Sequence record: MN850576.1
DNA from: Escherichia phage ime
Direction: 5' to 3' (one strand)
DNA length: 64,000 bases
Under the pieces are notes generated by a model. It was not told the DNA's origin. It saw nothing but the letters and a program-made list of their open reading frames with translations, and did no database searches. Of the stretch, positions 4,416-8,423 are shown in pieces (the stretch's first letter is position 1; every line of letters begins with the position of its first letter). The position numbers were made by a program, and so were the translations under genes.

Positions 4416-4786
4416 TGATCAGTCTCCTTCTTGTTAAGTCTGAATACTGCAATAATAGCATTCCCAAGGTGCAGTGTCAAATCATTTCCAAGATACCACA
4501 GCATCCCACGGTCATCTTTAATGAAAGGGTAACAATCTGGTGCCTTCCAGACATTGTACACTTTGCCAACCTGAAAGAAATCAGGCCCTGTCGGGATTTT
4601 GGTGCCAGGCCACACTTGAGATACCTGAACACACTCCACCTGCATAATAACAGGAATAGTCATGGATGTAAATGTTTTTGTTGGTTCTACTACCATAAAA
4701 GTCTCCTCTTTGCTCAACAACACTTCCATGTGTTGATAGTTTACATTAGTGACAATCACCCCAATTACGACCACACAAGTATTCAC
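4412..4786 (-). CDS. hypothetical protein
   Basis: 124-aa ORF; first 13 codons overlap polymerase exon 2, so the true start may be the internal Met (MEVLL..., about 4729). Confidence 0.45.
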   Translation of the reverse strand: MNTCVVVIGVIVTNVNYQHMEVLLSKEETFMVVEPTKTFTSMTIPVIMQVECVQVSQVWPGTKIPTGPDFFQVGKVYNVWKAPDCYPFIKDDRGMLWYLGNDLTLHLGNAIIAVFRLNKKETDQ

Positions 4787-5099
4787 CTGTGATCTGGAAC
4801 GGGACTCCCATCATTTTAGAAGCTTGCCAGAAGCAATGCACCACCATTTCACCCACAGGGCTCCAGATAAGTTCAAGCTTTCCGTCATCGTTCAGGATAG
4901 GATCGTACACCGTGTTTCCGTCTCTGTCAACCACTTCGTTTCCGTTTTCATCCTTGCGTGCCTTTTTGTACTTATGACCGTCAAACACATGAAGTTTGGC
5001 CTCCTGCTCTGCCTTAAATGCTTCCAATTCTTCAATTGTGTCGAAGGTGTACACAGTCTTATACTTAGGCGTGTCAGGGACCTGAAGTTGGTACTCATC
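4746..5099 (-). CDS. DNA polymerase family A, C-terminal segment (putative exon 2)
   Basis: Frame is open from an upstream TAG and begins DEYQLQV...; ends ...GRNWGDCH, resembling family A polymerase C-termini as recalled. No ATG or RBS of its own; the ORF track starts it at TTG 5102. Confidence 0.65.
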   Translation of the reverse strand, partial: DEYQLQVPDTPKYKTVYTFDTIEELEAFKAEQEAKLHVFDGHKYKKARKDENGNEVVDRDGNTVYDPILNDDGKLELIWSPVGEMVVHCFWQASKMMGVPFQITGEYLCGRNWGDCH

Positions 5100-5941
5100 C
5101 AATAGTTCAGGTAGGTCGTTAAGCTACCCCGCACCATTACGTGCACAGCCATACGGTTTCCTGTATGGATCGGACTATCTCACTACCTTGTTACCAAGGC
5201 ACCTCTCATTTCGACCGCACTTGCTGGCCTACTCTACTCGCTTCTTCACACCAAACTATGTTGGAGCTATGCTTTCGATAGTCTCTGAACGTTACTACCA
5301 GGTGTAGTTTTTAGAGATATGTTTCCACTGTCTTCTTTGCTTTATGGCTCTGACCGTCTCATAAGGATACCCAAGATCCCTAATCTCACATTGTCGTAGA
5401 CCACTCTGCAACAGTTCACAAATCTCCATTACCTCATCCTCGGTCAGCACAGCGTTGGCATTATACTCACCGACTGGCCTTACTCTGAGCTCATTATCGT
5501 AGGCGTGTTTGATATTTTCACCGGGGGTAGTCCATTCCAGGTTCCAGTATGCATTGTTGTACTTATTTCCATCCTTATGGTTCACCCATGTGAGCTTTTC
5601 AGGATCAGGGTTCGGTACAAAGCATTCAGCAACCAAGTGGTGGACACCTTTTGTGCACTGCCTTCCATCGATGAGCATGGTTACGCAAAGGTAACCTCTA
5701 CCATTATCAAAACAAAACATTGTTGTATGATCACGTTTCGATAAAGGTATTGTTCCATCATCAAACACGATATACCCGTGATAATCAGCTGATCTAGCCA
5801 TTTTAACTACACCCCTTTAGTCTTCGCTGCGGATTAGCATATTGAGTTTTTACCATGTTTAGGTGTAAAAGTCAACTTAGCCTTCCCGTCAATTAAAGAG
5901 GTTTTCGACGTGCATCACTGCACGAAGCCACAATGTTATTT
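5100..5941 (-). mobile_element. putative group I intron carrying an HNH homing endonuclease ORF, inserted in the DNA polymerase gene
   Basis: Interrupts the polymerase after the His codon of motif C; exon 1 ends in U, element ends in G; possible P1 pairing of exon CCAU with GUGG 11-14 nt into the element; about 335 nt of non-coding sequence flank a 507-nt HNH ORF. Confidence 0.55.
5295..5801 (-). CDS. HNH homing endonuclease (I-HmuI-like, HNH_3 type with C-terminal helix-turn-helix)
   Basis: 168 aa; motif ...WVNHKDGNKYNNAYWNLEWTTPGEN... is typical of HNH_3 endonucleases; C-terminal ...LTEDEVMEICELL...WKHI resembles their DNA-binding tail; own RBS upstream. Confidence 0.8.
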   Translation of the reverse strand: MARSADYHGYIVFDDGTIPLSKRDHTTMFCFDNGRGYLCVTMLIDGRQCTKGVHHLVAECFVPNPDPEKLTWVNHKDGNKYNNAYWNLEWTTPGENIKHAYDNELRVRPVGEYNANAVLTEDEVMEICELLQSGLRQCEIRDLGYPYETVRAIKQRRQWKHISKNYTW

Positions 5942-8365
5942 ATGGTAATAAATAATACGACGAACACCTTCATCGTACCACCCACGCTTCACCATTTGGT
6001 GGTGCATGAGTATCCCAACTAAGTCACACAACGATGCACCACCATTTTGTTGGTATGCATTAAGTAAAGAGTGTTTAGATCGGGTCCAGATAGCATGACC
6101 ATCAAAAGAGTAGATAAACTTCTTACCCGTTGCTTCCCAGAATTTCTCCAGATCCTCTTTACGCCCTTTAAGACCAGGGTTGGCATCCCAAAGCGCATCG
6201 ATTACCCTTTGCCCCAACTCTGGGGAGATATCCAGCATGTCTGCAACTTTATCTTTTTGTGCCCCATACATAACCCCGTACGTGATAGGTTTACCGTCGT
6301 TACGAGACACCTCTCTACCTGCTACTTTCGTATATGCCTCAGCATTGTTTTGGTGGGCATCCCCGTTACTTACAACATCGTAATACAGGCCGTTGTCGAA
6401 CTCAAAGGCACCCCAAGCCCCGATAAGCTGCTCTAAGTTGGACCCGTCAATACCGATCTCAAAGTATCCTGGAGGAACACCCCACAGACTGCGCATCTCT
6501 TTACCCATAACCACTTTAGGAGATGGTTTAGGCATGTTTGCACAAATACTGTGTTTCTGTCGGGAAGTGTTTGTTAATCCAGAGCTTTTAGCAGGAAGCT
6601 TATGGTCAATCTTCAAACGTGGGTGATTAAGAAGACCAGTATCAACCTTATCCTCCTTGATTGGATCAAGGACCGATCTGCGGTTTCGCAATGATAACCA
6701 CAAGACGATATCTTTAGCCATCTCTCCGTTCAATTTTTCAAGATTCGGACATAGGTGTCCAAACGTATCTTTCAGTTGCGGAGAAGTAATAAGTGCCCTG
6801 GCTTTTCTGCGTATTTTCCCGAACACTTCCTTTTTAATCCTTTCGGAGTTAGGAAAGCTTCGGAACTTGTGCACTGTTGTCTGAAACTTAGCATCAGTTT
6901 TGTTCCAGAAGTTGATAATTAGGTCACAATACTCTGACTCTAAAAGCTCGTCCATGTATGCATATACTCGTGCATCAACATCTGCATCAGGTAGAGCTTT
7001 CTTCTTGCTGTCCTTAGTTACATCCTTAGTTCTCCACATTGTCGGAAGCCAACCAGCACTGATCAGGTATCGCTTAATGTCGTCCTGGTTGCTGATTTTC
7101 ATAGGTATCTTGCAGTCAGGCATTCGCTTCTGCTGCAGATCACTTATTGCCTGATCCATCAGCTCTTTAGGTAAAGGTTGTGGTGTGGAGGTGCCCTTAA
7201 TATAACCTCTCAAGAAATCAGCCATCTTGTCGGGGTCTTTGCAGCCCATCTCTTCGCACCATTTTATCCCCATCTTGCTGACATCTCCTGTGGAGGTAAA
7301 TGCTCGCTTAGGCGGGGCTTTGAATTCTAAAGCGCTCATGTCTACAGGATAGCCAAGCTTATCTTTTAACCATTTCCAACCATTATTGGAGATTGTCCCA
7401 TCTTGGTTAAACGGCTTTTCAGGGAACTTGGGCCGCTGAGACATTGACAACTCTTTTAAAGGAAGTTGAGGTTCAACACGATCAGCGATCTCTTTCATCC
7501 ACGCATCGCAACGGTCACGTAAAGCAATAGCTCCATCTATGTCGAAGTATACACCCTGACGGGCCTGCAGCTCCATCAGGAAGTGCTGCAGCATGCCTCG
7601 ACGTAATGCGTTCTTCCAGGTGATCTTCTTGAACCCTTTCGGCTTCTCTTTGGCTGGATCGTACATAAAGTTCTGCATGTCAGATTTGCCGTAGAATACA
7701 CCTTTTGATTCCGCTACCAGCTCTTTCCAGAGCAGCTCCTGGATGATAACGTCCTCGAATACACGATCCACATACTTCCACAACGGAAGATCGCGCCAGT
7801 CATCAATTTGAACTTTCTGGTTACCAAGGGCGTAGCCCCATGCCATAAGGCCGTGAGGACCAACAGGCTGCATTTTCTTAGTAACCGGGTTGAATACAGA
7901 GTCCGGACAACCTTTTGGTAAAGGGCGATCAGGCCACAAGATTCTGCTCATCGCCAACGTATCAAACAGGTTAACCTGGTGGTCGTTGATAGTCCCCATG
8001 CATTTAGGATCACGGAACATATCAAAATGAATACCGGATAATCTTTCCATCAGCATAAAGTCATAACTGTAGCAGTTATGGCAGTTCAAAGCTGTTGGTG
8101 ACCAGTCGGAATTGCCTGTAAGCCAACCTTCCAACTCCGAAAAATCTGCTATGCGAACTTCAAAATCTTTATGAAGAGTTTTCTTTGCCAGAATAAAGTT
8201 CTTAGCCTTCTCTATATCCTCTTCGGAGTAGTGTGTGCGGTCATTTAGAGGAAGGAACAGCATAAAACGGTTCTTATTCAGCTCTTTAAACAGGCCGCAG
8301 TGATAATAAAGATCTGGATCTTCCAGCAAACCGGATGACTCAAAGTCGAACGACCACATGCTCAT
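5942..8365 (-). CDS. DNA polymerase family A with 3'-5' exonuclease domain (putative exon 1; ORF track extends to 5936)
   Basis: N-terminal FDFESSGL matches the Exo I motif; GIDGSNLE...FDNG...NGDAH and K...YGVMYGA align with polymerase motifs A and B as I recall them from T7 gp5; ORF stops two codons after the motif C His. Confidence 0.8.
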
Positions 8366-8423
8366 ATACAGTTCTCCTTAAAGGGGAGGCGGTTGTACTA
8401 CCCCTCCCACTCTTTGTTAAACA

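Follow-up and report, generated by a model that had tools for sequence, protein, structure and literature searches.

A mobile and most probably self-splicing group I intron at catalytic motif C of the DNA polymerase gene of Escherichia phage ime

The interruption of a DNA polymerase gene by an IA2-like group I intron, inserted between the His and Asp codons of catalytic motif C, is the main finding of our analysis of 64 kb of Escherichia phage ime (MN850576.1; this whole stretch is referred to below as the window). The gene encodes a family A polymerase and the phage is an rV5-like Vequintavirus coliphage; the polymerase gene, the intron and the HNH open reading frame (ORF) that the intron carries all lie on the minus strand. 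We interpret the element as a mobile, self-splicing intron, an interpretation to which we would assign a probability of roughly 0.93. It is carried by four lines of evidence, namely the exact correspondence of the exon boundaries with intron-less alleles in related phages, the restoration of motif C when the exons are joined, a group I fold maintained by compensatory base changes, and a patchy distribution among nearly identical genomes.

Exon–intron boundaries and the joined polymerase

The 3'–5' exonuclease domain and polymerase motifs A and B are encoded in exon 1, whose last codon is CAU (5944..5942), the His of motif C, and whose final nucleotide is U5942. The intron begins AAAUAA and thereby introduces an in-frame stop two codons in, and the 809-aa ORF (8365..5936, minus strand) accordingly terminates ...RRIIYYHK. 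At the other end the intron finishes with UAUUG, the omega-G lying at 5100, and exon 2 opens at the GAT of 5099..5097 with the translation DEYQLQV...NWGDCH; the downstream frame is open from 5102, where it reads (L)DEYQLQV...NWGDCH, and ends at 4746. Joining of U5942 to G5099 yields a 925-aa protein (...IIYYH/DEYQLQV..., the solidus marking the junction here and below), for which the predicted ligated DNA is ...UAUUACCAU/GAUGAGUAC... and the predicted junction peptide ...IIYYHDEYQLQVPDTPK.

Intron-less relatives read ...TATTACCAT/GATGAGTAC... at this point, which is exactly the predicted junction. In the intron-less allele of phage JohannBauhin exon 1 is fused directly to exon 2 (TATTACCAT/GATGAGTACC), and over a longer stretch (AAGGTGTCCGTCGTATTATTTATTACCAT/GATGAGTACCAACTTCAGGTCCCT) the two exons abut at the predicted bases. 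Since boundaries placed one base to either side would fail to give the JohannBauhin sequence, the splice sites are fixed independently, and every coordinate of the original prediction, which had placed an element of about 842 nt at this position, proved to be correct. A tblastn search with 173 residues spanning the junction found the sequence uninterrupted in many Vequintavirus genomes at 97–100% identity, including a homologue 100% identical across the junction over all 173 aa, and at least 34 records match the junction as one piece. An intein or a frameshift as the cause of the interruption was ruled out by the UAA stop in the polymerase frame and by the length of the insert, 842 nt not being divisible by three.

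The C-terminal region of the joined protein aligns with residues 469–658 of T7 DNA polymerase (E 1.6e-13), and this alignment covers the family A patterns GIDxSxLE, RxxxKxxxYGxxYG and HDE. Motif A reads GIDGSNLE (GIDASGLE in T7), motif B RNDGKPITYGVMYGA (RDNAKTFIYGFLYGA in T7) and motif C, across the junction, IYYHDEYQL (AWVHDEIQV in T7), so aligned that the motif which the original prediction had expected joining to rebuild (YYH/DEYQ) falls on T7 H653-D654-E655. The Pfam DNA_pol_A match, which spans residues 620–742 with exon 1 alone, extends to 620–822 when the exons are joined, and its score rises from 27.9 to 31.8 bits; this is slightly under the curated cut-off of 34.3 bits, and we therefore regard the protein as a divergent family A enzyme. 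Because the intron lies between YYH and DEYQ, it separates the His from the catalytic Asp-Glu of motif C, and the product of exon 1 alone would be without the motif C carboxylates.

Group I fold and proposed splicing pathway

That the element is a group I intron, as had been suggested from its ends and a plausible P1 pairing, is substantiated both by covariance search and by comparative analysis of its fold. The Rfam group I model RF00028 matches 5951..5150 (minus strand) from end to end (31.9 bits, E 6.7e-6, in a search of the region). It is also the sole Rfam match when the whole window is searched (E 2.7e-4), neither further copies of the intron nor other Rfam families being found in the 64 kb. 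Alleles at the same site that carry no ORF score between 64.7 and 91.2 bits, above the curated (gathering) threshold of 50 bits for this family: 72.5 bits for the 329-nt intron of JLBYU08, 73.7 for that of JEP1 (328 nt), 64.7 for EPFV3 (276 nt), 91.2 for 18-1-2 (317 nt) and 77.3 for Vibrio phage K412 (254 nt). Over the shared core, the JEP1 intron is 97.8% identical to that of the window.

For the analysis of covariation 13 alleles, from Vequintavirus, Avunavirus and Seunavirus, an unclassified Vequintavirinae phage, and Aeromonas, Pseudomonas and Vibrio phages, were aligned with MAFFT after excision of the ORF insertions, and the structure was written from the window sequence. The helices P1, P2, P3, P4, P6, P7, P7.2, P8, P9, P9.1 and P9.2 were tested, P3/P7 being treated as a pseudoknot. 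Standard pairs occupy 96.9% of the 752 cells, and changes on both sides of the helix are seen in 27 of the 59 pairs, values that were reached in none of 500 shuffles; when, as a control, the 3' partners were slid by 1–3 columns, pairing fell to only 34–42%. Compensatory changes are commonest in P2, P8, P9 and P9.2. P7 is fully paired (100%) in all 13 alleles, with U-A replaced by C-G in three of them, and in other lineages the CGG/CCG of P4 becomes CUGG/CAG; four unpaired cells in P4 reflect a one-column MAFFT misalignment of alleles of the latter type, which by eye pair perfectly. The core from P3 to P8 with its P3/P7 pseudoknot is thus present; lack of a P3–P7 core, together with solely unspliced transcript, had been named beforehand as an outcome that would refute the original prediction. 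A merely chance likeness to group I introns was ruled out, since ORF-less alleles pass the Rfam threshold and the fold covaries.

Both ends of the intron are of the expected form. The 3' end is the omega-G at 5100, and the predicted pairing of exon CCAU with GUGG was found, with a U5942.G5931 wobble at the 5' splice site. P1 is unchanged in the 13 alleles, as is to be expected given that these introns share one target. A CAUU segment lies directly 5' of the P1 guide and pairs with the GAUG that opens exon 2, giving a P10 of 4 bp, so the guide CAUUGUGG spans the ligated junction CCAU/GAUG. With regard to subgroup, the hallmark of IA2 introns is the presence of P7.1/P7.2 between P7 and the 3' strand of P3, joined by G-U-A (PMC3428280). 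The window intron contains this arrangement (...GCGA-GUA-GAGUA-GGCC...GGUC), with covariation in 3 of the 4 pairs of P7.2, and by this criterion we classify it as IA2-like. Short segments of the core resemble parts of the T4 nrdB, Twort and LUZ24 introns.

On this basis we propose that the gene would be transcribed as a single pre-mRNA in which the guide pairs with both exon ends. An external guanosine would attack after U5942, the freed exon would then attack after G5100, and the ligated mRNA would be translated into one 925-aa polymerase with ...YYHDEYQ... intact. On unspliced RNA, ribosomes would stop at the UAA two codons into the intron, giving a product without the catalytic Asp and Glu.

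The putative endonuclease gene and its embedding in the intron

The HNH ORF occupies 507 nt of the 842-nt insert. The original prediction had described it as I-HmuI-like and as having its own ribosome-binding site, and both points are supported. Its product matches PHROG 59, 'HNH endonuclease' (E 7.5e-39), and the I-HmuI structure 1U3E (E 6.1e-5), the latter over the catalytic motif ...HHLVAECF...VNHKDGNKYNNAYWNLEWTTPGENIKH, with the HNH motif aligned as HKDGNK..NN..NLEW; a GGGGUG Shine-Dalgarno sequence lies upstream. The Pfam HNH_3 match (E 7.9e-5, 22.7 bits) is just under the cut-off of 24.8 bits, and a search of the protein against NCBIfam gave no match. Homologues are frequent in phages (1,740 records matched), and the protein itself is 93–100% identical in about 30 records. 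We infer that it is a homing endonuclease which, in mixed infections, would nick or cut intron-less alleles, the intron then being copied in by repair (homing).

The ORF is looped out of P6. The segment GGGUGUAGUU (5814..5805), just 5' of the AUG and including the Shine-Dalgarno region, pairs with the final sense codons of the ORF, AACUACACCU (5309..5300); two further pairings join ACUA to UAGU, in which the stop codon is contained, and GCG to CGU, the latter being P6. All seven alleles examined that have an ORF in P6, from five phage groups, share a 3-bp P6, a small internal loop and a long stem joining the start of the ORF to its end, and the paired sequences are wholly different in A5-4, GEC_vB_MG, phiA019 and SPA01. 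From these predicted duplexes it appears that the long stem unites the two halves of P6 across approximately 500 nt, and in the folded RNA it would conceal the ribosome-binding site, probably limiting translation.

Within the P5 extension, 46 nt before the start codon of the HNH ORF, there is a sigma-70-like element. In a comparative pattern search TTGAnn-17-TAnnnn (16 nt in phiTE) was found in every one of the 13 long-P5 alleles but in neither of the two shortest ORF-less ones, and the GenBank record of PVP-SE1 annotates a promoter at the same position. The promoter scan of the window does not report the element, because its -10 hexamer, TAAAAA, is without the final T. Taken together, these patterns suggest that a promoter of its own, located in the P5 extension, probably serves the HNH gene.

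The coordinates of these features are collected in Table 1.

Table 1. Features of the polymerase gene and its intron in the window
Feature	Position	Strand	Remarks
DNA polymerase exon 1	5942..8365	-	ORF list; alignment of motifs A and B with T7 polymerase; Pfam DNA_pol_A E 1.5e-6
Group I intron, IA2-like, 842 nt	5100..5941	-	RF00028 match; boundaries from intron-less allele
DNA polymerase exon 2	4746..5099	-	117 aa + stop codon; starts GAU GAG (Asp-Glu of motif C)
HNH homing endonuclease ORF (putative), 168 aa	5295..5801	-	Pfam HNH_3, PHROG 59, 1U3E; looped out of P6
P1	5928..5945	-	Exon CCAU + intron AA (5945..5940) pairs with UUGUGG (5933..5928)
P10, intron strand CAUU	5932..5935	-	Pairs with first four bases of exon 2, GAUG (5099..5096); by sequence inspection
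P2 hairpin, CGUGCA/UGCACG	5909..5924	-	Compensatory changes in 5/6 pairs
P3, 5' strand ACCUCUU	5896..5902	-	Pairs with 5207..5201 (GAGAGGU); compensatory change in 3 pairs
P4 and extended P5	5828..5891	-	P4, 5891..5885 with 5833..5828; encloses P5 hairpin 5884..5834
Sigma-70-like element in P5 extension	5847..5875	-	TTGACT 5875..5870, 17-nt spacer, TAAAAA 5852..5847
P6, P6a, P6b, 5' strands	5805..5827	-	GCG, ACUA, GGGUGUAGUU; fold after trimming of ORF; same register in 7 alleles (duplex prediction)
P6b, P6a, P6, 3' strands	5289..5309	-	AACUACACCU, UAGU, CGU; cover final HNH codons and stop codon
P7, 5' strand GACUA	5279..5283	-	Pairs with 5177..5173 (UAGUC); guanosine-binding site; pseudoknot with P3
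P7.1 + P7.2 insertion, GUA linker	5213..5278	-	P7.2 stem, 5229..5226 with 5216..5213
P3, 3' strand GAGAGGU	5201..5207	-	Pairs with P3 5' strand
P8, J8/7 and P7 3' strand	5173..5200	-	P8, 5200..5195 with 5190..5185, 5/6 pairs covary; P7 3' strand 5177..5173
P9, P9.1, P9.2 and 3' tail UGAACUAUUG	5100..5167	-	5167..5150; 5145..5130; 5128..5110; omega-G 5100

Distribution and mobility

The 3.9-kb region around the polymerase gene is 96–98% identical to that of many Escherichia phages of the genus Vequintavirus (rV5-like myoviruses), and this part of the gene is contained in 113 phage records. The 842-nt HNH-bearing intron is present in 32 of these, at least 34 have no intron, and at least 26 carry a short ORF-less intron in a 276- or 328-nt form; phage isim has an intron 100% identical to that of the window. 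The presence of the intron is patchy among genomes more than 95% identical to one another, which fits ongoing gain and loss. Two types of P2 and 3' tail can be distinguished (GUGCA...CUAUUG and AUAGA...CAGAUG), and as each occurs both with and without the ORF, either the endonuclease gene has been gained or lost repeatedly or recombination has taken place within the intron.

Outside the Vequintavirus genomes the same YH/DE site is occupied in Avunavirus, Seunavirus, Certrevirus, Aeromonas, Pseudomonas and Vibrio phages, with cargo that varies in kind and position. In phiTE and Aeromonas phage 4L372D an HNH gene different from that of the window starts in the P5 loop, its frame running through the P4 and P6 strands, and the intron of PVP-SE1 has a LAGLIDADG gene after P7. 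ORFs in the P6 loop, annotated as HNH endonuclease or hypothetical, are found in Seunavirus GEC_vB_MG, A5-4, Aeromonas phage phiA019 and Pseudomonas phage SPA01; the introns of Vibrio phage K412 and Avunavirus 18-1-2 contain no gene. A distribution as patchy as this is the signature of a homing element.

Several further observations were made in the course of these comparisons. In several Vequintavirus genomes segments of the intron core have a match at a second position, which may represent a related intron elsewhere, for example the terminase introns of rV5. In Pseudoalteromonas phage PH357 (L015, 1201–1282) a stretch of 82 nt resembles the 3' end of the intron (P9.1/P9.2 and tail); it is flanked by a gene for a hypothetical protein on its upstream side and an endonuclease VII gene on its downstream side, with no recognisable polymerase motif C context. 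The polymerase of some Vequintaviruses, JEP1 and EPFV3-03/2025 among them, is 1132 aa long because motifs A and B are separated by an in-frame insert of 324 aa (in JEP1, L002 2647–3618). The first residue of this insert is Cys, its end reads ...GN with Cys next, and it has LAGLIDADG-like motifs and a weak Hint_2 match (E 1e-4); to judge from these features it is probably an intein, and the window has no such insert. A T7 gp4-like primase/helicase gene precedes the polymerase gene in the window, the gap between the two (8366–8423) being 58 nt; in FFH2 (L003, 636–1370) an extra free-standing HNH gene lies between these genes and overlaps the start of the polymerase gene. Finally, approximately 16 'Campylobacter phage' records (MG0656xx, host C. 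jejuni) are 87–97% identical to the Escherichia coli Vequintaviruses over the 3.9 kb, and so distant a host suggests mislabelling or contamination.

Relationship to known introns

Group I introns at the same position of a family A polymerase gene have been described in the T7-like phages PhiI and W31, where the insertion is at Escherichia coli Pol I position 881, the motif C His, and the HNH gene lies in P6a (PMC3428280). By that description, they share with the ime intron the type of host gene, the H/D site, the IA2 subgroup and an HNH ORF in the P6 region. Their hosts are T7-like podoviruses, whereas ime is a large rV5-like myovirus, and no T7-like phage was among the matches listed in a blastn search with the intron. 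The introns of SPO1, SP82 and Bastille, which encode I-HmuI, I-HmuII and I-BasI, respectively, are also group I introns in a family A phage polymerase gene with an HNH nicking enzyme of the I-HmuI type, but they are inserted at position 674, in the fingers domain, rather than at 881 in motif C (PMC3428280), and, unlike ime, these phages have Gram-positive hosts.

CB7 and phiTE are Pectobacterium phages of the genus Certrevirus, and the HNH-containing polymerase introns of CB7 have been shown to splice by reverse transcription PCR (RT-PCR) and Sanger sequencing (PMC7344957). CB7 carries a phiTE-type intron, 94.4% identical to that of phiTE, at the YYH/DEYQ site. These phages belong, like ime, to the Vequintavirinae, and their intron has the same site, guide sequence and 3' domain, phiTE and the window being 73.8% identical over the last 141 nt. 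The HNH gene of CB7 and phiTE differs, however, in being shorter (127 aa), in starting in the P5 loop and in running through P4' and P6, and their polymerase genes contain, nearer the 5' end, another intron that the window lacks. Salmonella phage PVP-SE1 has a homologous scaffold at an identical polymerase site, but with a LAGLIDADG gene in the P7.1/P7.2 region in place of the HNH gene in P6.

The literature search found no publication on a Vequintavirus polymerase intron. In the rV5 genome paper the polymerase is given as 775 aa, and the only introns reported are those of the terminase gene; rV5 (DQ832317 / NC_011041) itself nevertheless carries the 276-nt ORF-less form, and its intron therefore seems to have been overlooked. 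In GenBank the ORF is already labelled as a homing endonuclease, and the polymerase is entered there as two coding sequences (CDSs).

Alternative explanations

When the interpretation of the element as an active, self-splicing and mobile intron is considered, four observations weigh against it: the score of the window copy against RF00028, at 31.9 bits, is under the threshold of 50; P9 of the window contains an A.C mismatch that is not present in relatives; an in-frame TTG (5102..5100), which is ATG in some alleles (FFH2 and JLBYU08), stands immediately 5' of the GAT of exon 2, from which a C-terminal piece could be translated separately; and Asn occupies the position of Asp74, a metal ligand in I-HmuI (VNHKDG as against VDHKDG), so that endonuclease activity is not guaranteed.

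The TTG is central to the possibility that the intron is a dead relic and that the polymerase is made as two polypeptides, of 809 aa and approximately 118 aa, which assemble after translation. Such an arrangement is not without parallel: NrdA of Aeromonas phage Aeh1, split by mobE, works as two assembling polypeptides. Two polymerase CDSs are indeed annotated in GenBank records, and one of the HNH-associated insertions of CB7, that in the gene for nicotinamide phosphoribosyl transferase, did not splice (PMC7344957). The original prediction had held that the downstream fragment has neither an ATG nor a ribosome-binding site; inspection of the upstream sequence found no Shine-Dalgarno sequence before the TTG, in agreement with the latter, but the in-frame TTG, with ATG in its place in some alleles, calls for a small correction of the former. 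The TTG is moreover located only a short way 3' of P9.2. In at least six phage lineages compensatory changes have maintained the ribozyme core, as they would not in a relic; the cut would part His from Asp-Glu within the catalytic motif; in relatives without the intron the polymerase is a single chain; and the homologous CB7 polymerase introns splice (PMC7344957). For these reasons a two-polypeptide polymerase seems to us very improbable, and the earlier preference for splicing is strengthened by the conserved core, the single-polypeptide intron-less alleles and the RT-PCR results for CB7. We accordingly infer that the intron splices in phage ime. Even less credible is a free-standing HNH gene inserted in the polymerase gene without a ribozyme, its group I likeness being due to chance. 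The low Rfam score of the window copy would agree with this, as would the frequency of such genes in these genomes, for example upstream of the polymerase gene in FFH2, but the score is under 50 bits because the HNH ORF constitutes a 527-nt insertion in the P6 loop. Alleles without the HNH gene retain an insert of 276–329 nt at the same site that scores 64.7–91.2 bits, 11 helices are backed by covariation, and the ORF accounts for only 507 nt of the insert. This explanation is refuted by the scores of the ORF-less alleles and by the covariation.

More serious, although we still consider it unlikely, is the view that the intron splices but carries an HNH gene which is a decaying passenger without homing activity, the intron being kept by vertical descent only. 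This would account for the Asn at the metal-ligand position and for the several ORF-less derivatives, which are to be expected late in the life cycle of a homing endonuclease gene. An intact ORF, a protein sequence 93–100% identical in about 30 records, the retention of a Shine-Dalgarno sequence and a promoter-like element, and the patchy presence of the intron among genomes more than 95% identical all speak against this view.

Significance

The intron is an element of a known kind at a previously reported insertion site, of which this member is new or at least unpublished, and our findings leave the current understanding of group I introns unchanged. Their main value lies in the correction of annotation and in the series of alleles. 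In GenBank, near-identical genomes carry either two CDSs named 'DNA polymerase' or, for exon 2, the name 'hypothetical protein', whereas the gene should be annotated as encoding one enzyme of 925 aa. The natural alleles, comprising an intron-less form, three sizes of ORF-less intron and introns with HNH or LAGLIDADG cargo variously placed, offer a ready series on the gain and loss of homing endonucleases. The H/D site of motif C is a recurrent intron target in unrelated phage groups.

We tentatively suggest, as a possibility that we hold to be real but less than even, that the intron is more than a passive parasite. The arrangement of a putative sigma-70-type promoter in P5 and a ribosome-binding site predicted to be locked in P6b, shared by at least six phage lineages whose endonuclease genes differ, may constitute a self-contained module for endonuclease expression, through which expression would be uncoupled from transcription of the polymerase gene and tied to folding of the ribozyme. 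I-HmuI and I-HmuII confer an advantage on their phages by marker exclusion between SPO1 and SP82. If our suggestion is correct, the enzyme could in the same way favour intron-bearing phages over intron-less Vequintaviruses in mixed infections.

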